A stretch of 64,000 nucleotides of DNA from a virus. Lineage: Duplodnaviria; Caudoviricetes. The first letter of the stretch is position 1; each line of letters starts with the position of its first letter. The stretch is taken from positions 224,001 to 288,000 of the IMG/VR virus record IMGVR_UViG_3300028591_000070; one strand, 5' to 3'. A program made the translations under genes and the position numbers. The notes under the pieces were generated by a model. The model did not search any database and was not told where the DNA came from. It worked only from the letters and a program-made list of their open reading frames with translations. Positions 12,570 through 61,428 of the stretch are shown in pieces.

Positions 12570-13625
12570 ATGATGAATTTGAAACAATATTTTTTAGACA
12601 CTTATTCTACTGAGTTTCGTAGAGATAAGCATGAGGACTTCTTTTGGGTTCAAATGCTTATGACAATTGCATGTTCTCTTTTAAATAGTCTTTGGTTATT
12701 AAAAGATGTATTTGTAAAAGGTATCGGTCCTGAAGGAAATTTATATTTTGTTATTTTATGTCGTCTTATTCCTTCTGTATTACTTATCCCATTTATTCTA
12801 TGGTCTTTCTCAAATAAAAAGATTGAGCCTTACTTTGCTAATTTTCTATTATACATTAATCTTTTTGCACAAATTTTTGCTATTCATTTTTCAGGTAAAC
12901 CTACTAGTGGAACTGGCCATACGATTATGAGCTTAGCTATTTTCATGCTAGAGTATGCCTCAGTATCTGGAGTGGCTCAGATTTTAGCTCAGATTTTATA
13001 TCCATTTTTAATGTATATAAGTTCTCAAGCTGTTTTAGGACTTTTTATAACGTCTAATGACCCAGCAGGATTACTATTTTCAAATTGTATTATGTCTATA
13101 GCTAGTTTAATTTCTGCCACAATTTTAAGAATAAATTATTATAATTCATGGATTATAAAACGCAAACTGGTGCTAGCTGCAAAAATGGATTCTATGACAG
13201 GTCTTTGGAATAGAAAAAGAATAAATGATATTACTAGCAAAGATTTATTATTAGAAGACTCAACTATTTTAATGATAGATATCGATAATTTTAAGTCTAT
13301 AAATGATAATAATGGCCATGACTTTGGTGATAAAGCTATTCTAGACACGGTCGACTATTTAAAAAAATCTTTTTCAACTGCAAATATTATTCGATATGGT
13401 GGTGATGAATTTTTAATTATTATTTCAGAAAATATGAAATTATCAAAAGTTAAAATTAGATTAAGTGCCAATCGTTCTAGAGATGACATTACCTATTCAA
13501 TAGGTATTGCTTATGGAAATAAAGATGATAATATCTATGGAATAATAAAACACGCTGATATAGCACTATATAAATCTAAAGAAACTAAAAATTGTATAAC
13601 ATTATTTAATGACATATTAAAATAA
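12570..13625 (+). CDS. membrane-anchored GGDEF diguanylate cyclase
   Basis: About 6 TM helices, then DSMTGLWNR, DIDNFKSINDNNGHDFGD, RYGGDEF, ADIALYKSK. Confidence 0.93.
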   Translation: MMNLKQYFLDTYSTEFRRDKHEDFFWVQMLMTIACSLLNSLWLLKDVFVKGIGPEGNLYFVILCRLIPSVLLIPFILWSFSNKKIEPYFANFLLYINLFAQIFAIHFSGKPTSGTGHTIMSLAIFMLEYASVSGVAQILAQILYPFLMYISSQAVLGLFITSNDPAGLLFSNCIMSIASLISATILRINYYNSWIIKRKLVLAAKMDSMTGLWNRKRINDITSKDLLLEDSTILMIDIDNFKSINDNNGHDFGDKAILDTVDYLKKSFSTANIIRYGGDEFLIIISENMKLSKVKIRLSANRSRDDITYSIGIAYGNKDDNIYGIIKHADIALYKSKETKNCITLFNDILK

Positions 13626-14715: not shown

Positions 14716-14744
14716 ATTATACTTTTTATTTTAAAGATTTTCAA
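14716..14744 (-). promoter_or_regulatory. sigma70-type promoter, leaderless start
   Basis: TTGAAA-N17-TATAAT, 6 nt before ATG 14709. Confidence 0.7.
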
Positions 14745-15567
14745 CTAGTTTTTTAGCCTCATCATCATAGATATCTGGACTTATTTGGACATAATCAATA
14801 CCATGAATTTTAAAGAAAGTTTTTACTTCTTTTATCTCTGAGAAAGCAGGTTTCTTTAAAGTAAAGTTGACAAAAATACTTTGTGATCCAAAGGTATCTC
14901 TTAAATATAGAAGATTATCCATAACCTTTTCCCAACTAGCTCCAATTCTAATGGCCTCAAAACTTTCTTTAGTTATACCATCAATAGATGGGGAAAAATT
15001 ATAAATCACTCCTGTTGTGTCACTTATCGCTTTAAGTTCATCTATTCTAGAATGAGAAAGTAAAGTTAAATTAGATTGAAAGTCTACAATTCTTGTATCT
15101 TTTGGAGATAAACCTTTTAAAAATTGAATTACTTTATAATAATAAAAGAAGACTTCGCCAGAGCTTATTAAATGAATTTTTTCTAATGAATGTCCTTTAA
15201 TTTTTTCTAATGTTTCAAATTGAAGGTCTCTAGTGTCTGGCTCATCTTTATGTTCTGTAAAAAAACAATGATAACAATGTAAATTACAAGCTTTAGAAAA
15301 AGATACAGTAACTACTTCTATTTTAGGACTTAAAGTACATGGGCAAGTGCACCATCCTTCATAAGCAGGCTTTTTAGAAATATTTACTTTTGATGATTCT
15401 TCTTCTGCAAATGAAATAAGATCCTTTATCTTTAAAAAATCTTTAATTGGCATATCTACCACAAAAGGATAGATATAACAACACCTAGAAAGACAAACTG
15501 TTTTTCCTTTTGGCTCATAAGTAATTTCTAGTCTAGAAGGCATTACACATTTATTAAAAACTTCCAT
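14731..15567 (-). CDS. radical SAM protein 1 (N-terminal twitch-like module; subfamily A)
   Basis: C..P...RCC...CTCPC; CNLHCYHCF; SSGEVFFYY; SIDG...FEAIR. Confidence 0.9.
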   Translation of the reverse strand: MEVFNKCVMPSRLEITYEPKGKTVCLSRCCYIYPFVVDMPIKDFLKIKDLISFAEEESSKVNISKKPAYEGWCTCPCTLSPKIEVVTVSFSKACNLHCYHCFFTEHKDEPDTRDLQFETLEKIKGHSLEKIHLISSGEVFFYYYKVIQFLKGLSPKDTRIVDFQSNLTLLSHSRIDELKAISDTTGVIYNFSPSIDGITKESFEAIRIGASWEKVMDNLLYLRDTFGSQSIFVNFTLKKPAFSEIKEVKTFFKIHGIDYVQISPDIYDDEAKKLVENL

Positions 15568-16403
15568 TACATTTCCTCAAACACTTTCTTTGCTTCTTCG
15601 TCAAAGCAGTCGTATGTCACAAAAGTATAGCCTATATTAAAATTTCTTGAAAAAAATTCTTTAACATTTTTATCTTTAAAATTTGGTTTTTTAATAACAT
15701 AGTTAATGCATATGTTCTCTGACCCAAATTCTTTAACCATTAACTCAAGGTTGTTCATAACTTTTTCAAAGTTTGCGCCTATTCTAGTTGCTTCAAACGT
15801 TTCTTTTGTAATTCCATCAATTGAAACAGTGATGTTTTTATATGGAATTCCTGTATTATCACTTACTTGTTTTAATTCTTTAATTCTAGTCTCATTTAAT
15901 GTAGAAAGACTTGATACAAAACTTACTTGTTTAGTATCTTTACATGGGTCTAAAGACTTTAAATAATTAAGTGTTTGATTATAATAAAAAAATGGTTCAC
16001 CTCTATCATTTAATCTTATTTCAGTAAGACAATTTCCTTTAATATTTTCTAAAGTTTTAAAATATAATTGTTTTGTTTCAGGGCTATCTTTATGCATTCC
16101 ATCCCAAAAGCAATGATAGCAACGTAAATTACAAGCCTTTGATAAGCCAACCGTTACTTTTTCAATTTTCTTAGGGAAATGACAAACTAAGCAACTGTCT
16201 TTGTGTTCATCATTAAAAACAGGTGGGACATTACAATGCTGATAAGCATATTCAATTATATTATTAATTTTTAAAAAATCCTCAATTGATAAAATTGAAA
16301 ATGGCTCAAGATAACAACATCTGCGTAAAAAAACTTTATCTTCTTGATTTAATATAATTGATAGTTCACCTAAAGGATTCCAACATTTTCTATTAATTTC
16401 CAT
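15567..16403 (-). CDS. radical SAM protein 2 (subfamily A)
   Basis: CWNP...RRCC...CLVC; CNLRCYHCF; DRGEPFFYY; SIDG. Confidence 0.9.
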   Translation of the reverse strand: MEINRKCWNPLGELSIILNQEDKVFLRRCCYLEPFSILSIEDFLKINNIIEYAYQHCNVPPVFNDEHKDSCLVCHFPKKIEKVTVGLSKACNLRCYHCFWDGMHKDSPETKQLYFKTLENIKGNCLTEIRLNDRGEPFFYYNQTLNYLKSLDPCKDTKQVSFVSSLSTLNETRIKELKQVSDNTGIPYKNITVSIDGITKETFEATRIGANFEKVMNNLELMVKEFGSENICINYVIKKPNFKDKNVKEFFSRNFNIGYTFVTYDCFDEEAKKVFEEM

Positions 16404-16405
16404 AA

Positions 16406-17254
16406 TTATCCCCTATAGTTATAAAATGCTTTTTTGCAATTCTCATCTAACATATCATAGTAAATATTAACTTCTACACCTTTTGAATTAAAAAAGGGTT
16501 TTATATTTGGCAAATCTTTAATAGAAGCTTCTCGAATAGTACAACAAACGCAAATATCTTTTTTATCAAAAATGGAAATTAAGTTATCAAAGTTTTCCAT
16601 AACTTGTTCCCAATTTGCGCCACATCTTGTTCCTTCAAAACTCTCTTTAGTTATGCCGTCTATAGAAGCAACAAACATATATTTAACACCAGTTTGTTCA
16701 CTTATTTTCTTTAATTCTAAAATACGATTTTTATTTAATAAAGTCATATTAGTAAAAAACCGCATAGTTTCAGTATCATTAAGAGTAAGACTCCTTAAAA
16801 ATTTAACAACCTCATTATAATAAAAGAATGGCTCTCCTTGGTCTGTGAGTTGTAGTTGATAAAGCTGATGACCTTTAACACTGTATAATGTTTTAAAAAA
16901 TAAATCTTTAATCTGTTTAGTATCTGTGTGATGTCCATCAAAAAAACAATCATGACAATGAATATTACAAGCATGAGATAAAGATACCACTACTTGTTTA
17001 ATTTTATCGGGTGGAAAATAACAAGTAGTACATCTATCCATGGTCATTTGTTTTCGTAATTCTTCAGGAGAAGGATATTTAAACGTCTTTGTATAATCTA
17101 TTATATCATCTATTTTTGAAAATTCTTCAAAGCTCAGGGTTTTAAAAGGAGCTAAATGACAACATCTTTTTAGAGCAACTTCTGTATCATTTTCTCTTGT
17201 AATCCAAAGCGCACCATAAGGAATGGTACAATTTCCATGATTTGCGAATTCCAT
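16406..17254 (-). CDS. radical SAM protein 3 (subfamily A)
   Basis: CTIPY...KRCC...CTTC; CNIHCHDCF; DQGEPFFYY; start moved to ATG 17254. Confidence 0.9.
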   Translation of the reverse strand: MEFANHGNCTIPYGALWITRENDTEVALKRCCHLAPFKTLSFEEFSKIDDIIDYTKTFKYPSPEELRKQMTMDRCTTCYFPPDKIKQVVVSLSHACNIHCHDCFFDGHHTDTKQIKDLFFKTLYSVKGHQLYQLQLTDQGEPFFYYNEVVKFLRSLTLNDTETMRFFTNMTLLNKNRILELKKISEQTGVKYMFVASIDGITKESFEGTRCGANWEQVMENFDNLISIFDKKDICVCCTIREASIKDLPNIKPFFNSKGVEVNIYYDMLDENCKKAFYNYRG

Positions 17255-17282
17255 AACAATAAAATTAGTGACTAATTTCAAT
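17255..17282. promoter_or_regulatory. back-to-back ACTAAT motifs (bidirectional late-like promoter)
   Basis: ATTAGT-G-ACTAAT at 17264-17276; 9 nt to ATG 17254 (-), 6 nt to ATG 17283 (+). Confidence 0.7.
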
Positions 17283-18116
17283 ATGAATAAATGCCATAGA
17301 AAAATATATTCTATACAAGTAGATTTTACTATAAATAAAGTTGAACTAACAAAATGCTGCTATTTACATGGAAATAAAATTTCAATTGAAGAATTTAAGG
17401 CATTAGATAATATTATTATTCCACCAAATGAATTACCTTCTAATCCTTACCATATTGAAAATTGTTTAATGAATTGCGACTTTGATGATAATAAATATCA
17501 AACAATAGATATTTGTTGCAGTAGTTTATGTAATGCAAAATGTTATCATTGTTGTGCTGCAGATCATTCTCATCCCGACCCTAGAGAAAGAGATTTACTT
17601 TATAATTTTATTTTACCAAAAGTAAAAGGTTTTGGATATGGAACTCTTCAACTAGATGGGAAAGGAGAAGTATTTTTAAATTATAAAGAAATAACAGCAT
17701 TTTTAAAAACTCTTTCTGCTGAAAAAGATTTTAAGACTGTAAGATTTTTAACAAATGGTTCAACACTCACTAAAGAACGATTATTAGAATTAAAATCTAT
17801 TAGTGATATGACAGGTATAAACTATATTTTTGCAATTTCAGTAGATGGCATTAGTAAAAAAACCTTTGAAGCAGTGAGATGTGGACTTTCTTTTGAAAAT
17901 GTAATGGCTAATTTGCAGAACACTGTAGAGATTTTTGGAAATAATAATGTAGATATTACTTTTACGATTAAAGAACCTAACAAAGAAGACACTCCTTATG
18001 TGAAAGATTTTTTAGTAAATAATTATAATATTTTACCTGAAAGAATCGCTATGCAAAGTGATTTTTTAGATAAAAATATGAATCAATATTTAACAAATTA
18101 TTTTAAAGATCGTTAA
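17283..18116 (+). CDS. radical SAM protein 4 (subfamily B)
   Basis: C...KCC...CLMNC; CNAKCYHCCA; DGKGEVF; SVDG; start moved to ATG 17283. Confidence 0.9.
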   Translation: MNKCHRKIYSIQVDFTINKVELTKCCYLHGNKISIEEFKALDNIIIPPNELPSNPYHIENCLMNCDFDDNKYQTIDICCSSLCNAKCYHCCAADHSHPDPRERDLLYNFILPKVKGFGYGTLQLDGKGEVFLNYKEITAFLKTLSAEKDFKTVRFLTNGSTLTKERLLELKSISDMTGINYIFAISVDGISKKTFEAVRCGLSFENVMANLQNTVEIFGNNNVDITFTIKEPNKEDTPYVKDFLVNNYNILPERIAMQSDFLDKNMNQYLTNYFKDR

Positions 18117-18958
18117 AACTTTTCAATAAATAATTTTTTACAATCTTCATCAAAAAAGTCATAAGTAATAACTACCCATACACCTAAATTTCTGAAAAAC
18201 GTTTCAATCTCTTCTCTTGAGGCAGCCATATTAGGTTTTTTAATAGTGTAATTTACTAAAACATCATCAAAATTATTTAATAAATATTTTAGATTTGTGA
18301 TAGTCTTATCAAACTTTCCATAAATACGAGTAGCTTCATAAGCTTCTTTTGTGATACCATCTATAGAGGCCTCAAACTTATAGTGAATACCAGTTTTTTC
18401 ACTTATATCTTTAAGTTCTTTAATTCTTTCTTCCGATAATAAATTTAAATTTGTTAAAAACTTTATTGTTTTTGCATCTTCAGTAGTTAAAGTTTTTAAG
18501 TAATCTCTTATCTTATAATAATAAAAGAAGGGCTCACCTCTGTCAGTAAACTCAATAATATCTAAGTCATGACCTTTAATTTTTTCTAAAGTTTCAAAAT
18601 ATAATTCTTTTAATTCTTTTGTGTCTCTATGATTTTCATAGAAACAATGATAACAATTTAGATTACAAGCATAAGATAGCCCAACAGTTACTCTTTTTAT
18701 TTCATTTTTTGGAAAATAACAAGGATGGCAAAAATTATCTTCTTTAGAAGAAAAATTAGTATTTGCATATTTACTATAGTCTAAATATTCAAAAGTTTTA
18801 GAAAATTCAATAGGATCTTTTATTTTAAGAAATTCTTCAATAGAACAACTATAAAAAGGCTTACCACGACAGCAGCGTTTTAGGTCAATTTTATTTTCAA
18901 AAAAATTAATATTTAATTCACCACCTTCATAAGCAGTACAATTTACTAGTTTACTCAT
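18113..18958 (-). CDS. radical SAM protein 5 (subfamily A)
   Basis: C...KRCC...CHPC; CNLNCYHCF; DRGEPFFYY. Confidence 0.9.
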   Translation of the reverse strand: MSKLVNCTAYEGGELNINFFENKIDLKRCCRGKPFYSCSIEEFLKIKDPIEFSKTFEYLDYSKYANTNFSSKEDNFCHPCYFPKNEIKRVTVGLSYACNLNCYHCFYENHRDTKELKELYFETLEKIKGHDLDIIEFTDRGEPFFYYYKIRDYLKTLTTEDAKTIKFLTNLNLLSEERIKELKDISEKTGIHYKFEASIDGITKEAYEATRIYGKFDKTITNLKYLLNNFDDVLVNYTIKKPNMAASREEIETFFRNLGVWVVITYDFFDEDCKKLFIEKF

Positions 18959-18961
18959 TAC

Positions 18962-19813
18962 TTAATCCCATCTTTTATTTAAAGGTACATATTTAGAACA
19001 ATACTCTTCATCAAAATAGTCAGAGCTCCATAAAACATTTGATCCTAGATTTTTAAAAAATTCTTCTACTTGAGGCACATCTTCTATGTTAGGCCGTTTA
19101 ACTGTAAATGTGACCAAAGTATTTCCAAAAAGATTATTTAATTTTTTTAAAACTAAAATTACTTTGTTAAAATCAGCACCTGGTCGACATTTCGAAAAAG
19201 TATCTTCTTTAATTCCATCTATTGAAAGATTAAACTGATAATTTACACCAGTTTTTTTAGATATTTCATATAATTGATTTATTCTATCTTCGTTTAAAAG
19301 AGTACCATTAGTCATAAAAAATATATTTTTAATATTATTACTTGTAATGCTATTTAAATATGTTATTAAATCATTATAATAAATGAAAATCTCGCCGGAG
19401 CCATCTAAGAATAAAGTACCAATATTTGAGTTTTTTAATAAGTTTAACATTTTAAATAAAAATTCTTTTGCTTTTAATGGATTATTTTGCTCTTTATTTA
19501 AAGGACTCCATCCATCAATAATTCCACCAAAACCTGCACAACAGTGATAACATCTTAAATTACAAGCCTTAATGACATTAAGGGTAACATTTTTTATCTG
19601 ATTTGAAAATGCACAATTCTTTTGGCATTGATTTTCATGACCTTCTTTAAACTCGGAAGAAATTGCAAGTTCACCTAAGTCATTTAAACTTTTATTTAAA
19701 AATTCTTCTAAAGAAATAGTTTTTTGTATAAGTTGACAACATCTACCTATATCTATAGTTTGATTTATATTATCATATGAAACTAATAAATCTGAAGTTT
19801 TACAACAAAACAT
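18962..19813 (-). CDS. radical SAM protein 6 (subfamily B)
   Basis: CC...GRCC...CQKNC; CNLRCYHCCAG; DGSGEIF; TNGTLL. Confidence 0.9.
   Translation of the reverse strand: MFCCKTSDLLVSYDNINQTIDIGRCCQLIQKTISLEEFLNKSLNDLGELAISSEFKEGHENQCQKNCAFSNQIKNVTLNVIKACNLRCYHCCAGFGGIIDGWSPLNKEQNNPLKAKEFLFKMLNLLKNSNIGTLFLDGSGEIFIYYNDLITYLNSITSNNIKNIFFMTNGTLLNEDRINQLYEISKKTGVNYQFNLSIDGIKEDTFSKCRPGADFNKVILVLKKLNNLFGNTLVTFTVKRPNIEDVPQVEEFFKNLGSNVLWSSDYFDEEYCSKYVPLNKRWD
18983..19018. repeat. 36-bp exact direct repeat shared by rSAM6 and rSAM8 (second copy 20692-20727)
   Basis: aggtacatatttagaacaatactcttcatcaaaata occurs at both positions. Confidence 0.85.
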
Positions 19814-19841
19814 ATATAGTAAATTTAGTACTAATTTTAAT
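19814..19841. promoter_or_regulatory. back-to-back ACTAA(T/A) motifs
   Basis: TTTAGT-ACTAAT at 19824-19835; 10 nt to ATG 19813 (-), 6 nt to ATG 19842 (+). Confidence 0.7.
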
Positions 19842-20669
19842 ATGCAAAAATGTCGAAGAACTAATGAATTATATATAACTTTAAATGACCAAAATAATAT
19901 ATATTTACAAAGATGTTGTGCGGCTTCAGGAGAAGTTATTAGTTTAGATGATTTTTTTAATTATTCTATAGATGAACTCAGCGAAATTCCAATAAATGGA
20001 CATACCCTAAATGAAAGAAAAAGTGGTTGTAGTAATAAATGCAATTTTTCAAAAAACATTAAAACAATATTTTTTAATGTGATTAATGTTTGTAATATTA
20101 AATGTTATCATTGCTGCGCCGGATGTGACCATAAAGGTTTAGGTAATATATCATTTAGAAAAAAGCAATTTTTTAAAATAATAAATACTATAAAAAATGC
20201 GCATCTTGATTCTATTGGATTCGATGGCACTGGAGAAATATTTCTCTTTTATAAAGACTTAGTGTCTTTATTAAAAACACTAACTCCAAATGATACTAAA
20301 GATATACGATTTTTAACAAATGGTACTCTTTTAAATGAAGACCGACTAAAAGAACTCTATCAAATAAGTAAAGACACAGGAATAAATTATAGGTTTGGTT
20401 TATCGGTAGATGGTTTAACAAAAGAAACTTATGAGAAAATAAGAGTGGGTGCAAATTTTGAACATACAATAGATATTATTGATTCTATAAAGAATATTTT
20501 TAATAATCCACCTGAAATTATTTTTACTATTAAAAAATATAATATCCAAGAAGTACCTTTTGCAAAAGATTTTTTTATACAACTAGGTTGCTCTTATATT
20601 GAATTTTTATATGACATATTTGATTCAGAATGTGGTAAATATATGCCAGAAGATTGTAGAATTGGTTAA
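19842..20669 (+). CDS. radical SAM protein 7 (subfamily B)
   Basis: C...QRCC...CSNKC; CNIKCYHCCAG; DGTGEIF. Confidence 0.9.
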   Translation: MQKCRRTNELYITLNDQNNIYLQRCCAASGEVISLDDFFNYSIDELSEIPINGHTLNERKSGCSNKCNFSKNIKTIFFNVINVCNIKCYHCCAGCDHKGLGNISFRKKQFFKIINTIKNAHLDSIGFDGTGEIFLFYKDLVSLLKTLTPNDTKDIRFLTNGTLLNEDRLKELYQISKDTGINYRFGLSVDGLTKETYEKIRVGANFEHTIDIIDSIKNIFNNPPEIIFTIKKYNIQEVPFAKDFFIQLGCSYIEFLYDIFDSECGKYMPEDCRIG

Positions 20670-20670
20670 T

Positions 20671-21516
20671 TTATGAATATCTTTTATCTACAGGTACATA
20701 TTTAGAACAATACTCTTCATCAAAATAATCTGAATTCCATGTGATACTAACATCATAAGGTTCAAAAAACTTTTCAACAAAAGGTACATCTTCTACATTA
20801 GGTCGTTTAACTGTAAATATTACAGTAGTATATGGGAATAATTTTGATATAAACTTTAAGTTATCTAATACCCTATTAAAATCAGCACCTGGTCTACAAG
20901 CATTAAAAGTTTTTTCGCTTATACCATCTACCGATATTACGAATCTATACTGAACATTTGTCGTTTTACTTATTTTTAATAAATTAACAATTTTATTTTT
21001 ATTTAAAAGAGTAGCATTTGTTTGAAAATAAATTATTTTTGTATTTTCACCTGAAAAAGATTTTAAAGCTTCAATGAGGTCATCATAATAAATAAATATT
21101 TCGCCAGAGCCATCCATACTAATAGAAGAAAGTTTTTTTGTTCTTAAGTAAGAAAGTGCATCAAAAAGAAAATTTTTTCTATCTTGTAATTCTTCTTTAC
21201 AAATATTTTTAGCATTCCATTCACTAATTGAACCACTCTGTCCTGCACAGCAATGAAGACAAGATAAATTACATTTAGCAATAGCTGATATAACTACGTC
21301 TGTTATAGGCTCTACAAAGCCACAATTAAATTGACACTGATGCATATGATCTGGCCTAAGCTCAATAGGAGTATTTGAAGCTAAATCTTCTAAACTATTT
21401 AAAAATAAATCTGCTCTAGAAAATTGGTGTTCTTTTAAATGACAACATCTACTTATTAAAATAAATCCAGGTTTGTCATATGATATATTTATAATCGAGG
21501 ACCTTGAACATGACAT
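20671..21516 (-). CDS. radical SAM protein 8 (subfamily B)
   Basis: C...SRCC...CQFNC; CNLSCLHCCAG; DGSGEIF. Confidence 0.9.
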   Translation of the reverse strand: MSCSRSSIINISYDKPGFILISRCCHLKEHQFSRADLFLNSLEDLASNTPIELRPDHMHQCQFNCGFVEPITDVVISAIAKCNLSCLHCCAGQSGSISEWNAKNICKEELQDRKNFLFDALSYLRTKKLSSISMDGSGEIFIYYDDLIEALKSFSGENTKIIYFQTNATLLNKNKIVNLLKISKTTNVQYRFVISVDGISEKTFNACRPGADFNRVLDNLKFISKLFPYTTVIFTVKRPNVEDVPFVEKFFEPYDVSITWNSDYFDEEYCSKYVPVDKRYS

Positions 21517-21532
21517 ACTAATTTAATTAGTT
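21517..21532. promoter_or_regulatory. 16-bp intergenic gap with opposed ACTAAT motifs
   Basis: ACTAAT-TTA-ATTAGT near-palindrome between divergent ATGs 21516 and 21533. Confidence 0.7.
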
Positions 21533-22372
21533 ATGTGTCATCCATGGGAAAATTCTTTAGTAATTAATCAATTCGAAGGCTTAGATGGCTTTGAGGTTAG
21601 TAGATGCTGTATATTGAAAAGTAAAAAAATATCAAAAGAACAATTTTTTGAGTCATCCTTAAATGATGTTGGCAGGTTTGCTAAACCTGAGTCTTTTATC
21701 CAAGATGACTTATCACTATGTGCTCATGATTGTAATTTTTTAGAAGATATAAGTAAAGTTCATTTAAATATTATTCATAATTGTAATTTAAGATGTTATC
21801 ATTGTTGTGCAGGCTTTGATAAAAATGACCCAAGATTATGTTTTGGACTTAATAAATCTTTAGAATATCATCAACAGAAAAAAGAGTCATTTTTTCAAGT
21901 TTTAAATTATTTAAAAAACTATCCATTAAAAATAATATCAATGGATGGATCTGGAGAAATTTTTTTATATTATAAAGACCTAATTCATTACTTATTGTCA
22001 GTAAGATCTCACAATGTAGAAGAAATTTGTTTTTTAACAAATGGTACATTATTAACTGAAGAAAAAATTATTACTTTAAGTAAAATAAGTGAAAAAACAA
22101 AAATCAAATATAGTTTCGACCTCTCAATAGATGGTGTAACTAAAGAAAGTTTTGAATCAATTAGACATGGTGCAAAGTTTGAACAAATAATAGAAACAGC
22201 ATATCTTTTAAAAAATTATTTTGATACACAGATTAATTTTACTATTAAAAAACCAAATATCAGTGATATTGATAAGGTAGCAGATTTTTTTAAAGATTTT
22301 AGACTTTTCTGGTCATATGATTATTATGATCCTGAATGTGCGAAATATTTAAAAAATAAATGGGGAGAATAA
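21533..22372 (+). CDS. radical SAM protein 9 (subfamily B)
   Basis: CHPW...SRCC...CAHDC; CNLRCYHCCAG; DGSGEIF. Confidence 0.9.
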   Translation: MCHPWENSLVINQFEGLDGFEVSRCCILKSKKISKEQFFESSLNDVGRFAKPESFIQDDLSLCAHDCNFLEDISKVHLNIIHNCNLRCYHCCAGFDKNDPRLCFGLNKSLEYHQQKKESFFQVLNYLKNYPLKIISMDGSGEIFLYYKDLIHYLLSVRSHNVEEICFLTNGTLLTEEKIITLSKISEKTKIKYSFDLSIDGVTKESFESIRHGAKFEQIIETAYLLKNYFDTQINFTIKKPNISDIDKVADFFKDFRLFWSYDYYDPECAKYLKNKWGE

Positions 22373-22385: not shown

Positions 22386-24260
22386 TTAAGCCATATCAAT
22401 ATGAAACTCTCTTCCTCTTAAATAATTTTTACGAGGAGTTGAGTCATCACCATACCATTCTTCAATAGTTGTTTTAGCTCTATCATCCATTTCAAAAGGT
22501 TTAAGAAGTTTATCCATTCCACCAACTTTTTCGATAATTTGTTTTAAGTCTTCTTTTACCCAAGAACCCAATCCTTTCAAATAAAAATATTCAAGATTTT
22601 TCTTAAGTTCTGAATTTTTAGGAAATGCAAAATAATACTCTTCTACGCTATTACCTTTTTTACCAATCAAAAGAGGTGTTTCCAATCTACAAACTCTTCC
22701 TTGTTCAAGCATTTTAGGAGCAACTATACTAAAGAATGTGAGAATAAGACCAGCAATAGCACAACCATCTGGGTCGGCGTCAGTAAGAATTACAACTTTA
22801 TCATAAGTCATATCTTCTGTATTACCATTGGCATCTAAACCTAAAATATCACACAACTCCTTGATTTCGCGATTCTTCATAAACTCAACTGGCTTTTCAC
22901 CGAAGATATTCATCAACTTACCACGAAGCATATAATATCCAATACCTTTTCTACCTAAAATTGGAGAAATACCTGAAAAGGCAGAGAAACCCTCAGTTAT
23001 CATAAGATAATTTTTTCCAGTTTTTCCAATAGGTCCAAAATATTTATCAGACTCAACTTCCTTCTTACCTTTATTTAACTTTGCCAACTCTTTCTGTTCA
23101 GCTAATTCTTCTTTAAGTCTAAATAAATCAGTAATGTTATTAACAATTTCTTTTTCTCTAAGAATTTTAGCTGTAAAGCCATCCATATCAAGTTGATTAT
23201 CTCTAATAAAGTCGCCTACTTCTCCCCAAGAGTTTGTAAGTTTCTTTTTAGTCTGACTATCAAATGCACAGTTCAAAAATCCTTTTAAGAAAATTACAAT
23301 ACCGATGCGGTTACGAATATCAGCCGGTTTAATTGCTTTATATTTCTTTGAAACTTTATCACGAATATCACTTACAATTTTGTTTGTGATATAGTCAGCA
23401 TGGGTTCCACCTTCCTTCAATGAAATACCATTTACATAAGTAAGTGTATAAGGCTCTTCAGAAGGATAAACACAGATATAAGCATTTGGCTCATTCATAA
23501 CAATTGCTGGCTGTGGAAATAATGAACTTAAATCTTTGGCTGCTTTAATATTTACTTTTTCACCATTGAAAGTAAAAGTACAATCTGGATAAAACCATGA
23601 CAAAAACTTCAATCTAGTTTTTACAAGCAAAATAATATCTTCATCAAATCCTTTTACTGAAAATTTTTCAAAATCAGGTGAGAAAGTAATTTTTGTTCCA
23701 GTCTTGTTATTAGCTGCAAGTTCTTTTACATTGATTTTAGAAAGATTATTTTCACAAGAGATTTTCATCTTTCCTTGGCCATCACAAGTAATACATTCAA
23801 ATGTTTTTGAGAAAATAGATGCGGCCTTAATTCCAATACCATTTGTACCAATTGTCTCACGATTTTCATCATTGAAGTTTGAACCTGACATTGGAACTGT
23901 TACAGCATTTACACACATCCAATCTCCATTATCCATTTTCTTAACTGGAATACCACGGCCATTATCTTCAATAGAGAAAGTATTTTTGTCCATTGTGATA
24001 TTTATTTTTGTTGAATACTTCCAACCTGTTTTAATACCTTCGTCAACCGAATTATCAATTGCTTCATTTACAATCTTGTGAAGACCTTCTACAATATTTA
24101 CAGTTTTTAATTCAATTCCGCCTTCTTCATTCAAAGTCCACTCCATAGTATCAGAAGGTTTCATACCGCCTACATACATCTGTGGTCTCGCCAAAATATG
24201 TTCTACTGGAGAAAGTGATTTAATTGATCTATCATCTACTTGTTTCTTTTTTGCTGCCAT
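22386..24260 (-). CDS. type IIA topoisomerase ATPase/TOPRIM subunit (T4 gp39+gp60-like, fused)
   Basis: EHILARPQMYVG, EAIDNSVDE, DNGRGIP, GTNGIG, ITEG.SA, LRGK, DADPDG, YLKGLG. Confidence 0.95.
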   Translation of the reverse strand: MAAKKKQVDDRSIKSLSPVEHILARPQMYVGGMKPSDTMEWTLNEEGGIELKTVNIVEGLHKIVNEAIDNSVDEGIKTGWKYSTKINITMDKNTFSIEDNGRGIPVKKMDNGDWMCVNAVTVPMSGSNFNDENRETIGTNGIGIKAASIFSKTFECITCDGQGKMKISCENNLSKINVKELAANNKTGTKITFSPDFEKFSVKGFDEDIILLVKTRLKFLSWFYPDCTFTFNGEKVNIKAAKDLSSLFPQPAIVMNEPNAYICVYPSEEPYTLTYVNGISLKEGGTHADYITNKIVSDIRDKVSKKYKAIKPADIRNRIGIVIFLKGFLNCAFDSQTKKKLTNSWGEVGDFIRDNQLDMDGFTAKILREKEIVNNITDLFRLKEELAEQKELAKLNKGKKEVESDKYFGPIGKTGKNYLMITEGFSAFSGISPILGRKGIGYYMLRGKLMNIFGEKPVEFMKNREIKELCDILGLDANGNTEDMTYDKVVILTDADPDGCAIAGLILTFFSIVAPKMLEQGRVCRLETPLLIGKKGNSVEEYYFAFPKNSELKKNLEYFYLKGLGSWVKEDLKQIIEKVGGMDKLLKPFEMDDRAKTTIEEWYGDDSTPRKNYLRGREFHIDMA

Positions 24261-25624
24261 TAAAGTCTACCCTCCTTTTTAAGTTCTTTTTCTAACTCAT
24301 CAATATCTTTAAGCCAAAGTGTAACTGGAGTTTCGTTCTTAATAAAATTGTCTAATTCTTCAACTTTAGCTTGATACTTTTCTTCCATCTCTTTTGCTTT
24401 ATCAGATGTAATAGAATAAAGTGGCATAGAAATAAGTTTATCGATATTAATATATTTCTTTTTCTTCATATCTGCTTCTACAACAGATTTTTTAAATTTA
24501 AGATTTATAGTTCCTGCAATTACTTCTTTAATAAAGCGAACGACTTCAGCTAAATAAATCTTTTCATTTTCAAGTCGCTTTTCTTCAGACTTCTTACGCT
24601 TCTCCATATATTTAAGCTTAATATCATAATAAGCATTAAATACATCTGTTGCATCTTTAAAACCATCTTCAACGGCATTATTTTCATTAATCAATGTTGG
24701 ATTTTCGGTGATTACTTCAACTAAGCCCAAATCTTTAAGAATTGTTTCTTGTGGTAGGGCGGCTTCTTCATCAGTAAGAGTTATTTCAAAGTGAAAAGTA
24801 TCTACCTCTGGGTCAGATCCATCAATATATTTTTCAATTCTCTTTTTCTCTTTAGGTTTTTTAGGATCTGGATTTTTATATTTAGATAAAAGAGCTAAAT
24901 ACTTTTGTAAATCCCAGGTAATAGGAAGTTCATCAATTACAACTTTTTTACCTTGGATAGTTGCAACTCCACGAACCTCATATTTATTTGGCTCTAATTC
25001 AGCAACCGTTCCTTTAAATCCCTGCCAATTTGGGAGTAATAAATCCTTTTTAATTCTTTTGCCTTCCAATTTATTTCGAGTAAGCTTAATAATATTTTCA
25101 ATTGGGCGAGCATACATTTGGCCTGCAAAACCTACGCCAATACCTTCTGCTCCATTCACCAAAATCATAGGTAAAGTTGGCACATAAAATCTTGGCTCAA
25201 TTTCGTCACCTTCAAATTCCTGAGAAATAAGATTTTCATCATCACTTTTTCTAAAAATTAAATCTGAATAGTCTGCCATTCTCGCAAAAATATAACGAGG
25301 AGCAGAAGCTTCTGGAATAAGACGAGTTCCAAAAGAACCTTCACCTTTAACATAAGGTAAATTATTAGCTCCACAATAATCTGCTGCCAATGTTACAATT
25401 GTACCTTGAATTCCTGAGTCACCATGTAAATAACCAGCTTCCATAATAATAGAACTTGCTAATGCTGATACTTTAATTTTGCTTTTAATGTTACGTTGCT
25501 TTACTGTATAAATTACTTTTCTACCTGAGTTTTTCAAACCGTCAATATATGATGGCAAAGACCTATATGCCATATACAAAGCGCTTTGACTATACTCTTC
25601 ATTTAAAAACTTTGTAATATCCAT
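24260..25624 (-). CDS. type IIA topoisomerase breakage-reunion subunit (T4 gp52-like)
   Basis: DGLKNSGRK, YLHGD, SAPRY (catalytic Tyr), LVNGAEGIGVGF; no gyrase CTD pinwheel. Confidence 0.95.
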   Translation of the reverse strand: MDITKFLNEEYSQSALYMAYRSLPSYIDGLKNSGRKVIYTVKQRNIKSKIKVSALASSIIMEAGYLHGDSGIQGTIVTLAADYCGANNLPYVKGEGSFGTRLIPEASAPRYIFARMADYSDLIFRKSDDENLISQEFEGDEIEPRFYVPTLPMILVNGAEGIGVGFAGQMYARPIENIIKLTRNKLEGKRIKKDLLLPNWQGFKGTVAELEPNKYEVRGVATIQGKKVVIDELPITWDLQKYLALLSKYKNPDPKKPKEKKRIEKYIDGSDPEVDTFHFEITLTDEEAALPQETILKDLGLVEVITENPTLINENNAVEDGFKDATDVFNAYYDIKLKYMEKRKKSEEKRLENEKIYLAEVVRFIKEVIAGTINLKFKKSVVEADMKKKKYINIDKLISMPLYSITSDKAKEMEEKYQAKVEELDNFIKNETPVTLWLKDIDELEKELKKEGRL

Positions 25625-36326: not shown

Positions 36327-38180
36327 ATGTCAAGTCCAAGAGTTTTAGCAGGTAAGAAAAATTTCACAACAGTTAATGATGCATGGGAAGATTATTATTC
36401 TGAGAATAAGTTTGCTATTTCAGCAGATGTTCAGAAAGCTCTTAAGTATGTTCCTATTTATTATCAGAAGAAAAATCTTATGGCTATGGCTGCAGCTTAT
36501 TCTCTTTGGAATAGTGCTGAACAGCGATTTGAAATATTCTGTCCTAAGAATGCAGTTTTCCGTTCAACAAACCTTCATGAACTTGGACATATTTATTTCG
36601 GCCACTTAAAAAACTCTCGTAAGTATATTGCTATGGCTGAAAAAATCCTCGAACCTTATAGAAGTCAGATTGCAGATTTTCTTGATATAAGCCGCATGAA
36701 TGCAATCCATGATATTATCAATATTTGTATGGATTTTGAAATCAACTCAAAACTTTTTGTTACTAACAAAGAGCGAGAAGAATTGAATGCCTCAGTTCAA
36801 TTTTATTTAATGAGAAGACACGACACTAGAACTATTAGTTCTTTTATTAGTTCTTTTGATCCTGAAAAACTTTCTAAAGAAACTATAATTTTCTTCCCAG
36901 AAAACTTTGGTTTTCCTGGAAAAAAATCATTTCTTGAATATGTTCAAATGATGGTTGATTATTGTGTTCATCATAAAAAGCCAGAAATTCCACAGAATGG
37001 AACTGGTTCTTCTTATGAAGGTCAACTTTCTAATGAAACTAAAGGTGCAACTGCATTTTCTCTTCCTAGTAATAATACTGAAAATACTTCAAAAAATGAT
37101 GATGCTGAAGGTGACTCACCATTTAATGAAGAAGATGAAAATAATTCTGATGAAGAAAATAAACTTCCTTCATTTAATGAAAATAAATTGGAAGAAGAAA
37201 CTCAGGACAATTCTAACGAAGAAAACCCAGGTTCTGCTTCTTCTCCTAATGAAAATGATAAAGAAGAAGCTAATAGCAATAGTAGCAATAATGAAAAAGG
37301 TAAAGACTCAGTATCTTCAGATACTCCTCAAATTGAAGAAATAGATGATGATACTTTTGCTAAGCGTTTTAGAATTAATCGTGACACTAAAGAACAAAAA
37401 GATAACATTAAAGGAGAAGACTGCCGAGCTAATCGCAGAAATAGCGAACCTCTTTATGAACTTGAAGGTGAATCTCTTGACAATGAAATCTATAACTCTA
37501 AAACTTGGATGCTAGACCATGAAAGAGAAGAGGAAGAAATAAATAATCTTAAAGGAAAGGTTGACATAGCTTCTAATGCTTCTGAGATTAACAACTTTAT
37601 TCTTAAGAATGCTCTTCCTTCTATTGATATTTCATCTTATAATGATATTTTATACAACTATAATCGTGGTAAAACAACAGATGTATTTATCAATAAGGTA
37701 AGAACTCGTTCAACTTTCAGAAAGCCAAATGTTCATATTTTCACTGATGTTTCTGGCTCAATGGATGCTGAATATACTAAAAAGGTTGTAAAAGCTGTAA
37801 AAGCAATTAGCAGCCGTATTGATACTCGCTCATCAATTACATTTTATAATGAATGGGCCTTGAATACTGAAAAGTTTACAACTCTTAGTGATGAAGTTAT
37901 AAATAAATCATTTGTTGGTGGTGGCACTGAACTCGCTAGATCACTTAACAGAAATTATGTTAAAACTCAGGAAAATAACTCAGCTAATACTTTGGTTATT
38001 ATTTCAGATTTTTGTGATAATATCAGTGCAATTAAAAAATCATTTGATAATATCAAATCTACAATTCTTTGTATTGAAGTTGGAAACTCTAATAATGATG
38101 ATGTTGCTCAAGAATTCAAAGAAAATGAAATTAACAATGTAAAACACATAAAAATCGTAAATCGTCAATATGCTGCATAA
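36327..38180 (+). CDS. HExxH metallopeptidase-like / vWA protein (DUF2201-like)
   Basis: HELGH, DFEIN, acidic N/S/E linker, DVSGSM MIDAS, GGGT, ISD. Confidence 0.85.
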   Translation: MSSPRVLAGKKNFTTVNDAWEDYYSENKFAISADVQKALKYVPIYYQKKNLMAMAAAYSLWNSAEQRFEIFCPKNAVFRSTNLHELGHIYFGHLKNSRKYIAMAEKILEPYRSQIADFLDISRMNAIHDIINICMDFEINSKLFVTNKEREELNASVQFYLMRRHDTRTISSFISSFDPEKLSKETIIFFPENFGFPGKKSFLEYVQMMVDYCVHHKKPEIPQNGTGSSYEGQLSNETKGATAFSLPSNNTENTSKNDDAEGDSPFNEEDENNSDEENKLPSFNENKLEEETQDNSNEENPGSASSPNENDKEEANSNSSNNEKGKDSVSSDTPQIEEIDDDTFAKRFRINRDTKEQKDNIKGEDCRANRRNSEPLYELEGESLDNEIYNSKTWMLDHEREEEEINNLKGKVDIASNASEINNFILKNALPSIDISSYNDILYNYNRGKTTDVFINKVRTRSTFRKPNVHIFTDVSGSMDAEYTKKVVKAVKAISSRIDTRSSITFYNEWALNTEKFTTLSDEVINKSFVGGGTELARSLNRNYVKTQENNSANTLVIISDFCDNISAIKKSFDNIKSTILCIEVGNSNNDDVAQEFKENEINNVKHIKIVNRQYAA

Positions 38181-38185
38181 TTGAT

Positions 38186-38220
38186 AAAAATCGCATTTTA
38201 TTAAAAAATGCGATTTTTTT
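38186..38220 (+). terminator. intrinsic terminator
   Basis: AAAAATCGCATTTT...AAAATGCGATTTTTTT. Confidence 0.75.
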
Positions 38221-38256
38221 GAATTTATTAAAACCTTAAGGTATTATCTATATAAG
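38219..38256 (+). promoter_or_regulatory. sigma70-type (early-class) promoter
   Basis: TTGAAT-N17-TATTAT-CTATATAAG. Confidence 0.7.
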
Positions 38257-38283
38257 AAAACTTAAACAAAAGAGGTAAACTTT

Positions 38284-39597
38284 ATGAAAAATTTTGACAA
38301 AATGGTAAATGCTATTTCCCTTTCAAAGGATAGCGACGTTCCTTTCCTTTTAGTAGGAAATCCTGGTTTTGGTAAAACAACTGTAGTTCATGCTTGGGCT
38401 AAACAGAATGGTTACCATGTAGAAGAAATTATGGGTTCTTCATTCTCGCGTGATGAAGTTCTTGGTTACATGGTAAATGTAAATGGTTCTCTTGAAATGC
38501 TCGCTCCTTTTTGGTTCAAGAGAATTAAGAAACTTGCTGATGAAGGTACAAAATCAGTTTTATTTATTGATGAACTTTCAACAACTGGTGGTGATGTTCA
38601 GTCATCTCTCCTTCGTCTTATTTTTGAGCGTACAATTGGAAATGGTGATATGCTTCCTGAAGGAACTATCGTAATGTCAGCTGCTAACTATAAAGCAAAT
38701 CTTCCTGGTTACTGTGATGTTTCTTCTCCTGCTGTAAATCGTTTCTGTATTATCAATTTGGAAGAAGCTTCTCTTGAAACAATGGTTGATGACTATGTTA
38801 TCAATGAAATGCCTACTCCAAAAACTCCTAAGTTTGGTACAATCAATCCTTCAAAGTTACCTGACATCAGTGCTAAGATTGGTCTTTCAATGAAGAAGAC
38901 TTTTGTTAAATATTCAAATGGTGATGATGGCGGAAATGTACTCAACCCACTTAATCATAATCTCCAGATTTATGATGTTGAAAATGATACAAACACAAAG
39001 CGCCTTGCAAACTTTATCTCAGGTCGTTGTCTCAGCTATCTTAAGAGAGTACTTATAAGTATTGCAAAGTCTGATATTGAAGAAATTGAGCCACTTATCC
39101 GTGGAGCTGTAGAAGGTCTGGTAGGTGCTGGTACAAATACATTCCCAAGTGAAACTGTTCAGGAAGCATATATTTCTTATATGACAGACTCTTTTGTGGA
39201 AGATGTTGAAAAAATCCGTAGAATGTATGTAAAATATGATGCTACTCCAGCTTATGAAGCTATAACAGAAAAGCTAGTTGAAGACACAAAAGCTACTGCT
39301 TCTTCATCAAATCCTGATGAACTCTTCGAAAATATTCGCCGCAATGTAGAATATAACCCAGAAGAAAGAGAACAGATTGTTGCTGATATGGACCAGCTCG
39401 CTGTTGCACTTAAAATCAAAGGTCGCAACTTCGAAAAGAAGTATGCAACAAACCCTCTCTTTGCAGCAACTTGTAATTACATCATGAGTGTTTATACAAA
39501 TTATGTAAAAGCAAATCGTCTTAATCGCGAACTTGTAAATTATGTAAAGTATTATATGAACCGCATGGAAGAAACTTCTAAATCAGAAGTAGCTTAA
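38284..39597 (+). CDS. MoxR-like AAA+ ATPase
   Basis: GNPGFGKT, LFIDEL, SAAN, NRF; adjacent to the vWA gene. Confidence 0.88.
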   Translation: MKNFDKMVNAISLSKDSDVPFLLVGNPGFGKTTVVHAWAKQNGYHVEEIMGSSFSRDEVLGYMVNVNGSLEMLAPFWFKRIKKLADEGTKSVLFIDELSTTGGDVQSSLLRLIFERTIGNGDMLPEGTIVMSAANYKANLPGYCDVSSPAVNRFCIINLEEASLETMVDDYVINEMPTPKTPKFGTINPSKLPDISAKIGLSMKKTFVKYSNGDDGGNVLNPLNHNLQIYDVENDTNTKRLANFISGRCLSYLKRVLISIAKSDIEEIEPLIRGAVEGLVGAGTNTFPSETVQEAYISYMTDSFVEDVEKIRRMYVKYDATPAYEAITEKLVEDTKATASSSNPDELFENIRRNVEYNPEEREQIVADMDQLAVALKIKGRNFEKKYATNPLFAATCNYIMSVYTNYVKANRLNRELVNYVKYYMNRMEETSKSEVA

Positions 39598-56037: not shown

Positions 56038-56085
56038 TTGAAAATTTATTAATCTTGGTGGTATATTCTATATACGAGGTAGAAT
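56038..56085 (+). promoter_or_regulatory. sigma70-type (early-class) promoter plus SD
   Basis: TTGAAA-N18-TATATT-CTATATACGAGGT. Confidence 0.7.
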
Positions 56086-57006
56086 ATGGCTAAAGAAAAA
56101 AGATTTAATAAACTTTATCCACCAATTCCAATATTTCCTGAAGAATATGCTCCTAGGGGTTTTGATCTTAATAATGAAGTTTTACCTTCCCTTGCAGAAG
56201 AGATGCTTTGGAATTGTGCTTCATATTATTTGCATGAATCTTATTGGAAGCGTCTTATAGAATTAAATAACTTCTGGCAGTGTCTTAAGCCAGAACTTAC
56301 TAAAAATCAACGACAACTCTCATTTCCAGCTGATTTTGAAACTTTGCTTGCTGAAATGAAAGATATTAAAACTGCTGAGTCTGAAGCTAAAAAGCAGTGG
56401 CAGAAAAATAATAAAATTGAGTATGCAAAACAAAAATCTGAAAACGAAAAATTCCGTGATGAACATAATTTCTGTCTTATTGATGGCAAAAAGGTGAAAT
56501 GTCCTTATCAAATAGAAGGACCTGGACTTATTATGTCACACCCAGGTGATCCTAAGTTTGGTGCTTGGAAATATCGTGTAAAGCCAGAAGATGTTACATT
56601 AAATATTGTTGGTTATGAAACTCCAAAAGACTGGAAGGGCAAGGTTGTTTCATCTAACACATCTCAGTGGGTCTTCAAATATAAGATGGACTGTGGCCGC
56701 AAAGGTATGTCTTGCTATACTCAGCTTGCTAAAAAAGCTAATGTTGATGCTAAGAGTGATATTGCTCAGGGAAATACTTCTAAGAAGTTTGATAAAACAA
56801 TGAAAGCTATTAAGAAGTATAAAAAACTTGAAAAACATATTGAAGATGGTCTTAAGTCTTCAGATTTGAAAACACAGCAAACTGCTTTAGTTACTTGGTT
56901 GATTTCTCAGACTGGTATTCGTGTCGGAAATGAAAAAAATCTTAATATTTCTGCTGATACTGTTGGAGCCACAACTCTCAAGGTTAAAGACATCATCTTG
57001 AATTAA
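56086..57006 (+). CDS. type IB topoisomerase, eukaryote-like, N-terminal half
   Basis: AEE...NNFW, FCLIDG, IEGPGL...PKFG..K.RVKPEDVTLN, KKF.K, IRVGNEK....DTVG..TLKV matches TOP1 core up to the first catalytic Arg. Confidence 0.9.
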   Translation: MAKEKRFNKLYPPIPIFPEEYAPRGFDLNNEVLPSLAEEMLWNCASYYLHESYWKRLIELNNFWQCLKPELTKNQRQLSFPADFETLLAEMKDIKTAESEAKKQWQKNNKIEYAKQKSENEKFRDEHNFCLIDGKKVKCPYQIEGPGLIMSHPGDPKFGAWKYRVKPEDVTLNIVGYETPKDWKGKVVSSNTSQWVFKYKMDCGRKGMSCYTQLAKKANVDAKSDIAQGNTSKKFDKTMKAIKKYKKLEKHIEDGLKSSDLKTQQTALVTWLISQTGIRVGNEKNLNISADTVGATTLKVKDIILN

Positions 57007-57043
57007 GCTTTACAAAAAAGTATATTCTATATAAGAGGTAGAT
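56998..57043 (+). promoter_or_regulatory. internal early-class promoter plus SD between the topo IB halves
   Basis: TTGAAT(56998-57003)-N17-TATATT(57021-57026)-CTATATAAGAGGT. Confidence 0.8.
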
Positions 57044-57835
57044 ATGAAAACTATTACATTAAACTTTGTAGGTAAGAGTTCAGTTCCATTTAACCGTACT
57101 ATTGAAGTTTCTGATGAACTTTATGAAGTAATTAAACGAAGCCAGGAAAATAAAAAACCAACTGATGAAATCTTTGATATGGTTGACTCTGGTGATGTAG
57201 GAAACTTTTTGAAGGAAGTTGATAAAAGTTTCTCACCTAAAGTTTTGCGTACAGCTCGTTGTAATAGTGTTCTTGTTGAAAATCTTAAAAAGCAGAAGGT
57301 TGATAAAAACTCGACAGAAACCCAGAAGCTTGAGGCAATTTATAATGCAAATTATGCTATTGCTAAAGAGCTTAATCACCAGAAAAATATCGGCAAAAAT
57401 CAGTCAAACAATGAGGAAAAAGCAAATACAAATCTTCAGAATGCTAAAGATAAATTAAAGACTCTTAAAAAAGAGTCTAAGGCAAAACTTGCTGATATTG
57501 ATAATCAGGAAAAAAGCTTTGAAGAAAAATATGCAAAAATGCCTCAGATGCTCGAAGCTAAAAAGGCCGCATTGAAAATTGCTCGTGAAAAAATTGCAGA
57601 ACGTATTAAAAAGCAAGAAGCAACTGTTTCAAAGAACGAATTGAAAGCTAAGAAAACTTCTGAAACTGCTGATATTGCTCTTGGTACATCCCTTGGAAAT
57701 TATGCTGACCCACGTATTATCTATTCTTGGTGTAAAGATGTAGACCTTCCTATTGGAAAAGTTTATAATAAAAACTTACAGGAAAAATTTGAATGGGCAA
57801 AAGATACTCCTGCAGATTATTGGAGAAAAATATAG
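57044..57835 (+). CDS. type IB topoisomerase, eukaryote-like, C-terminal half
   Basis: LNFVGKSS, PKVLRT, NANY.IA..LNHQK, coiled-coil linker, IALGTSLGNYADPRI, KFEWA. Confidence 0.92.
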   Translation: MKTITLNFVGKSSVPFNRTIEVSDELYEVIKRSQENKKPTDEIFDMVDSGDVGNFLKEVDKSFSPKVLRTARCNSVLVENLKKQKVDKNSTETQKLEAIYNANYAIAKELNHQKNIGKNQSNNEEKANTNLQNAKDKLKTLKKESKAKLADIDNQEKSFEEKYAKMPQMLEAKKAALKIAREKIAERIKKQEATVSKNELKAKKTSETADIALGTSLGNYADPRIIYSWCKDVDLPIGKVYNKNLQEKFEWAKDTPADYWRKI

Positions 57836-60624: not shown

Positions 60625-61428
60625 ATGACAAAAACATTGGGTGATCGTATGAAAGAATATGAAAATGTCACAGATGCATCCCTTTATCATAGGATGCCAA
60701 TAATTTTAAGAATCGATGGAAGAGCATTCCATACCCTCACTTCCTTTATGGAAAAGCCTTATGATAATAATTTTATCAATCTCATGAATAATACAATGAT
60801 TGAGGTTTTTAATTCTTTTCCAGATGCAACTCTTGGATATGTACAGTCTGATGAAATCAGCATTCTTATGTGTCCATATGCTACTTATGAAACTGAGCCT
60901 GTTTTTGGTGCTCGTATTCAGAAAATCAGTTCAGTAGCCGCTTCTATTGCCACTCAAGCATTCATTAAAAATCTTTACAAGATGACTCAGTCTGATGAAA
61001 CTAAAGAATGGGCAGAAAAATGTCTTAATGGAAATATTACTTTTGACTGTAGATGCTTTAATCTTCCAAAAGAAGAAGTAATAAATTATTTTAGATTTAG
61101 ACAGCAAGATTGTACAAGAAACTCAATTTTGAATGCAGGACATTTTTATATTGGAAAGAAAAAATGCCATGGATTTAAGACTCCAGATATTATTGAAGCC
61201 TTAAAAGAAAAAAGCATTGACTATTGGACTACTTGGCCAAATTATGTTCATTATGGACGCTCATGTTATAGAGGAGAAGATGGCCATACAAAACTCTGGA
61301 CTCTTGTTTATGGAGCTAAAGATGTCGCCCTCGCTGTAGATAAGATGGTAAACTTCAATTATGAAAATCGCTCAGAATATATTGAAATGTTAGAGAGGTG
61401 TGTCAATGATACTGAATCCAGTAGGTGA
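60625..61428 (+). CDS. tRNA(His) guanylyltransferase Thg1-like 3'-5' polymerase
   Basis: RMKEYE, LRIDGRAFH, YVQSDEISIL, FDCR, RQQDC.RNS; GTTAATATT at 60563-60571. Confidence 0.93.
   Translation: MTKTLGDRMKEYENVTDASLYHRMPIILRIDGRAFHTLTSFMEKPYDNNFINLMNNTMIEVFNSFPDATLGYVQSDEISILMCPYATYETEPVFGARIQKISSVAASIATQAFIKNLYKMTQSDETKEWAEKCLNGNITFDCRCFNLPKEEVINYFRFRQQDCTRNSILNAGHFYIGKKKCHGFKTPDIIEALKEKSIDYWTTWPNYVHYGRSCYRGEDGHTKLWTLVYGAKDVALAVDKMVNFNYENRSEYIEMLERCVNDTESSR

Follow-up and report, generated by a model that had tools for sequence, protein, structure and literature searches.

A long-type topoisomerase IB gene split within its catalytic domain in a jumbo gut phage, and its possible origin through homing endonucleases

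Features of the locus

Within the window (the whole 64,000-nucleotide stretch of phage DNA that was analysed), two open reading frames on the plus strand, out of frame with each other and 37 nt apart, encode the two parts of a long-type topoisomerase IB (TopIB), here called chain A and chain B (Table 1). Chain A comprises the CAP clamp (core subdomains I–II), the hinge, and the first third of the CAT domain, and chain B comprises the remaining CAT domain, a coiled-coil linker (helices 120–162 and 167–207), and the C-terminal domain. Based on alignment to human TOP1 (1A31), chain A ends at the equivalent of L514 and chain B starts at that of V525, the cut site being a surface beta-turn (human residues 515–524).

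Table 1 Features of the split TopIB locus; positions are those of the window
Feature	Position	Strand	Details
Promoter of gene A, sigma-70-like	56038..56067	+	-35 TTGAAA, 18 nt, extended -10 TATATT
Ribosome-binding site of gene A, GAGGT	56076..56080	+	Sequence
TopIB chain A, 306 aa, 35 kDa	56086..57006	+	Profile search: PF02919 (CAP/DNA-binding fragment) on residues 16–201, E 7e-20, and PF01028 profile positions 2–81; human TOP1 E 5e-23
H152 of chain A (human R364 position)	56539..56541	+	Arg in 34/41 homologs
Catalytic R279 of chain A (= human R488)	56920..56922	+	Invariant, 41/41
Promoter of gene B	56998..57026	+	-35 TTGAAT (56998–57003), 17-nt spacer, -10 TATATT
TAA in B frame, then ribosome-binding site GAGGT	57032..57039	+	GAGGT 4 nt before ATG
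TopIB chain B, 263 aa, 30 kDa	57044..57835	+	Profile search: PF01028 profile positions 86–227 and PF14370; structure model pLDDT 91.8; best Foldseek matches human TOP1 and CsTOP1
Catalytic K11 (= K532) and S12 (human D533 position) of chain B	57074..57079	+	
Catalytic R69 of chain B (= R590)	57248..57250	+	Invariant, 36/36
Catalytic H112 of chain B (= H632)	57377..57379	+	Invariant, 36/36
Nucleophile Y220 of chain B (= Y723)	57701..57703	+	Invariant, 36/36

The gap between the genes is occupied by a promoter and ribosome-binding site, and the -35 element of gene B coincides with the last two sense codons of gene A. The same promoter motif precedes gene A and was counted 40 times in the genome, compared with 0–2 times in shuffled sequences. 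A similar cassette, followed by a Met start a few residues ahead of an F-x-G-K motif, was seen in nearly all inspected B genes. In relative L069, where the gap is 24 nt, an upstream TTGAAA lies within coding sequence 18 nt before the -10 element; hence the promoter spacing is preserved despite the different gap. Contigs from RNA run X9 were short and of low depth, covered short parts of both genes, and cannot indicate transcription.

An earlier note, made from the letters alone, had read both frames as a long-type TOP1 separated by such a cassette, with the R488 equivalent on the first chain and the other four catalytic residues on the second. Profile searches (PF02919, PF01028, PF14370), the phylogenetic tree, and the human TOP1 alignment bore this reading out. 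The note had also spoken of a phage early promoter cassette; the genome-wide count upholds the motif, the "early" class is suggested by its sigma-70-like form, and the promoters presumably fire.

Phage genome and probable host

The source virus record is that of a jumbo phage (385,934 bp, rated complete), the first 100 nt of which recur at the far end, and its best-matching sequencing run was from sheep gut. Its genes include those for a Gp23-like capsid protein, UvsX, NrdD/NrdG, and a T4-like two-gene type II topoisomerase (window 22386–25624; phrog_543, phrog_551), so that the phage has type II as well as type IB enzymes. The capsid protein is common to related phages of 190–330 kb; profiles for the PF03237 terminase and Gp23 were too insensitive on these relatives, and all five were recovered when the capsid protein of the phage itself served as the query. 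Flagellin is encoded in four of five genomes and FlaA in two relatives, which, together with rumen and termite-gut sources, points to spirochaetes as the hosts of the phage family. A scan of GTDB gave four matches. The best of them, a fused gene, comes from a 306-kb contig assigned to a Fimenecus bin; this contig is probably a mis-binned phage and was left out of the host reading.

Gene arrangement and phylogeny of related enzymes

Roughly 40 clusters of A chains (299–309 aa) and 35 of B chains (257–272 aa) end or start at the same turn, with 36–97% identity across clusters. Each half is single-copy per genome, and both were found wherever the sequence extends far enough. The halves may be direct neighbours, may have a homing endonuclease or other genes between them, or may lie about 51 kb apart; the gaps in split loci measure 24, 37, 56, 588, 771, 889, 941, 945, and 51,244 nt, the last in a relative whose complete genome (300,878 bp) has each half once. 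An intact gene of 555–580 aa, with the two parts connected by a turn of 3–9 residues, occurs in many related phages. In two relatives (G001:C1:288959–291830; L150), gene B stands alone in the vicinity of the major capsid gene, with A distant or not in view.

In an unrooted IQ-TREE phylogeny, some basal rows of which are putative phages, the phage-type enzymes were separated (99/98) from an archaeal group (100/100) and from a group of eukaryotes and giant viruses (100/100). Some members carry labels given by tree position only, i.e., "fused phage" for L097, L100, L107, L111, P0044, P0115, P0119, and P0122, and "archaeal" for P0128, P0130, and P0131. Judged by their sequences, the long-type TopIB proteins of phages are a branch of their own. 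That a long-type enzyme is unexpected in a bacteriophage, as had been remarked beforehand, agrees with published work in which the long version among prokaryotes was seen only in Thaumarchaeota (PMC4824112), and neither a long nor a split TopIB matched in 50,697 GenBank phage records or in PHROGs. A literature search, to which subscription journals were mostly inaccessible, found no published description of either form in phages. Giant-virus-type contigs (L030–L068 and L118–L148, GVMAG records among them) carry an intact long-type TopIB and form one clade next to eukaryotes; in one of them (L125:670–2432) the gene is broken elsewhere, near the CAP/CAT hinge, a state seen on a single contig that may be an error.

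Split and fused forms interleave, with eight changes on the B tree, a number that is distorted by recombination and does not stand for eight independent fissions. The same tree rejects a split that arose only once (one split clade: AU p 8e-41). Fused L014/P0108 and a fused termite-gut group nest among split forms.

Origin of the split

In L013 the halves are separated by a GIY-YIG endonuclease gene and in L093 by an HNH/NUMOD3 endonuclease gene (phrog_655), and in L163 an HNH endonuclease (phrog_655) 87% identical to that of L093 directly precedes gene B. The 37-nt gap of the studied genome and most split loci examined are free of an endonuclease. Relatives of the L093 HNH (38%) and L013 GIY-YIG (27%) enzymes are encoded elsewhere in the studied genome (G000:C1:156434–157135 and 167531–168106, respectively).

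L163 and L164, two assemblies that are 100% identical, carry a mosaic gene B, which up to codon 95 agrees with split L013 in 72 of 80 informative sites and from codon 96 onwards with fused L014 in 158 of 165 (Fisher p 4e-44 at the best breakpoint, uncorrected). From gene B through 1.8 kb downstream, the DNA is 91% identical to that of L014, and this flank is about 70% identical to that of L013. Such a mosaic is the picture to be expected of homing with co-conversion, in which a locus of the intact lineage would have received the endonuclease, the promoter, and the 5' portion of gene B in place of its own sequence. Scanning P0034, P0043, and L087 for mosaicism gave weak or negative results, with only a weak signal in P0034.

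We propose that a homing endonuclease of the free-standing kind, bringing a promoter and start cassette with it, may have invaded the turn that separates two conserved catalytic motifs, and that the split allele would then have been carried into intact genes by homing or recombination. Later, the endonuclease could have been lost, as in the studied genome, or the halves could have drifted apart. The L163 mosaic is from one lineage and could arise by ordinary recombination, and the gap may have been there before the endonucleases arrived; for these reasons, an origin and spread of the split through homing endonucleases is regarded as reasonably likely, but not as firmly established.

The most serious competing explanation accepts a working heterodimer but attributes the mixture of split and fused forms to repeated fissions, re-fusions, and ordinary recombination, the endonucleases having arrived later in the gap. 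It draws on the two different endonuclease families found there, on the unrelated genes that occupy the gap in L151, L154, and L165, on the fused groups nested among split forms, and on the weak mosaic signal of P0034. Against it, the L163 mosaic brings an endonuclease together with a short split-type tract into a fused-lineage locus, as co-conversion predicts. This history is considered possible, though the less probable one.

Predicted assembly of the enzyme

As proposed beforehand, the two chains were submitted to complex prediction, which scored 0.69 for A with B compared with 0.00 for the best of three controls; the mark applied was reached by 58 of 80 solved pairs and 2 of 110 mismatched pairs. 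The two parts of a split gene easily pass this test through their resemblance to solved TOP1 structures, and the score hence speaks for a plausible geometry and not for binding. Predicted contacts agreed by at least 96% between runs, with a partner pLDDT of at least 85, and the predicted interface joins residues 264–283 and 290–306 of chain A with residues 2–13, 62–75, 109–111, and 222–224 of chain B, including strand pairing of A304 with B4–5.

Overall, it is highly probable that A and B, made separately, form an active heterodimeric long-type TopIB. Both genes would be transcribed and translated separately, the signals for which are present, and the chains would join non-covalently, the final strand of A pairing with the opening strand of B. 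The CAT helices of A are predicted to pack on those of B, restoring the catalytic domain, so that R279 of A would complete the active site with K11, R69, H112, and Y220 of B. By analogy with TopIB biochemistry, the enzyme should then clamp around DNA, become linked to it through a 3'-phosphotyrosine at Y220, and, needing no ATP, remove supercoils of either sign, positive or negative, while the phage transcribes and replicates its genome. Against an active heterodimer, H152 and S12 occupy positions at which human TOP1 has conserved residues, and TopIB may be dispensable because the phage has a type II topoisomerase.

In human TOP1, R364 and D533 form a salt bridge (PMC3905883). The subclade of the studied phage has His at the R364 position in A and Ser at the D533 position in B, and the next branch out, matching in both trees, keeps Arg (P0007, A tree) and Asp (P0076, B tree). 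This paired change across the chains, one event only, fits a working dimer. R364H and D533 mutants are reportedly resistant to camptothecin, and by analogy H152 and S12 would predict such resistance in the phage enzyme.

Alternatively, the chains might work independently, A clamping onto DNA and B acting as a nicking or recombinase-like protein, with no topoisomerase formed; separate promoters, halves that can be unlinked, and the type II topoisomerase would be compatible with this. However, a single domain is shared out between the two chains, the predicted interface is large, both halves occur together as described above, and R279 is invariant on A though useful only beside the residues of B, so that separate roles appear improbable.

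Joining into a single polypeptide through ribosomal frameshifting, bypassing, or RNA or protein splicing was also considered, the genes being adjacent and in order here and T4 topoisomerase gene 60 being a precedent for bypassing. The TAA in the B frame, however, sits four codons before the ATG of gene B, and after it that frame holds no codon matching the last codon of A on which a ribosome could land. No RNA structure was detected at the junction (z +1.25), no Rfam match in five split loci, and no intein sequence at either end of the halves. On these grounds, neither recoding by frameshift or bypass nor an intron or intein was accepted; the variable gaps among relatives likewise speak against such readings, and joining in cis is ruled out by the complete genome with halves 51 kb apart, leaving a single polypeptide scarcely credible.

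An assembly error or decaying pseudogene, for which only the intact relatives in the same phage family would speak, can be dismissed with equal confidence: contigs from three other studies cross the locus and retain stop and restart (one with a gap 13 nt shorter), dN/dS among close relatives is 0.06–0.21 for A and 0.03–0.22 for B, the pentad does not vary among 41 A and 36 B sequences, and the gap is taken up by a complete promoter and ribosome-binding site. The conserved split, purifying selection, invariant pentad, and independent assemblies show the split topIB to be a conserved, selected feature, neither artefact nor decay. The earlier note was thus right that this is no simple sequencing frameshift; of the finding by which it would have been overturned, namely intact relatives beside a decaying copy, the intact relatives exist and the split copies are free of decay.

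Comparison with known systems

The phage enzyme shares with human TOP1 (1A31, 1K4T) and Caldiarchaeum CsTOP1 (6Z01) the CAP, CAT, coiled-coil linker, and C-terminal domains and the R/K/R/H/Y pentad, i.e., PF02919, PF01028 with R488/K532/R590/H632, the linker, and PF14370 with the Tyr; it differs in being made as two chains, in being phage-encoded, and in its separate tree branch. A short poxviral or bacterial TopIB, a single chain of about 310–350 aa without CAP and linker, was rejected, as PF02919, the linker, and PF14370 are all present here. Short enzymes (vaccinia 1A41, Deinococcus 2F4Q), which occur in viruses and bacteria, share the catalytic fold and chemistry but have none of these three elements, and their Foldseek matches were weak (E 0.2–0.6).

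With the kinetoplastid enzyme (Leishmania L/S, 2B9S), the phage TopIB has in common two genes, two chains, and a composite active site; in Leishmania, the L subunit holds the core and the S subunit the tyrosine (PMC4266802). Whereas the kinetoplastid split is at the linker, the phage chains part between R488 and K532, about 120 residues closer to the N-terminus, and the linker is left whole. A kinetoplastid-type TopIB was rejected, given the split at human 515–524 and the alignment of B to 2B9S_A 321–431 plus 2B9S_B. The split point inside the CAT domain is thus new, as had been claimed; an active site composed of two chains is not, given the kinetoplastid case.

The closest precedent for the gene split is the NrdA of phage Aeh1, beside which stands gp43A/B of phage 25. 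According to published work (PMC3045599, PMC2988022), the HNH gene mobE cut NrdA-a/NrdA-b between two beta-strands with the composite site remaining active, Aeh1 needs assembly tails, and T4 topoisomerase 39/60 was split by mobA. In contrast to Aeh1, the TopIB halves are without added tails, the enzyme is a different one, and it is found across a phage family in adjacent, interrupted, unlinked, and intact states. Measured against the Aeh1 type, the lack of an Rfam hit and of terminal inteins goes along with predicted non-covalent chain assembly. Both endonuclease gene-splitting and two-chain TopIB accordingly have precedents; a TopIB that is heterodimeric through its catalytic domain is what distinguishes the phage enzyme.

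Taken together, a rough probability of 0.55 is given to the full reading, namely a deep, phage-specific TopIB branch in gut jumbo phages, probably of spirochaetes, with the active site split at a new point and homing endonucleases converting intact genes to working two-chain genes, every stage of this being present and some genes possibly re-fused. Many jumbo gut phages appear to make TopIB as two proteins, with the split appearing to have spread through selfish endonucleases. The locus offers a naturally occurring cut point within the catalytic domain of TOP1 and a second route to a heterodimeric TopIB; two separately made chains provide a system for studying clamp opening and active-site assembly, and the turn at the cut may serve for a split human TOP1 reagent. 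The separate phage branch of the unrooted tree bears on the origin of eukaryotic and archaeal TOP1, and the relatives would represent an unusually full natural series of mobile endonucleases breaking an enzyme gene without loss of function.

Other features of the phage genome

An array of about nine radical SAM paralogues of about 280 aa (window 14731–22372; PF04055 match for the first) is present, as is a membrane protein with a GGDEF diguanylate cyclase domain (window 12570–13625; PF00990, E 8e-26). A 617-aa acidic protein with a vWA-like DxSGS motif adjoins a MoxR-like AAA ATPase (phrog_1297; window 36327–39597), and a Thg1-like tRNA-His guanylyltransferase is encoded at window positions 60625–61428 (phrog_4717). 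Outside the window, the flagellin gene (G000:C1:331374–331783) is in two frames, 49 codons followed by 240 aa; it is unbroken in three relatives, and the break in the studied phage is either real or an assembly error.
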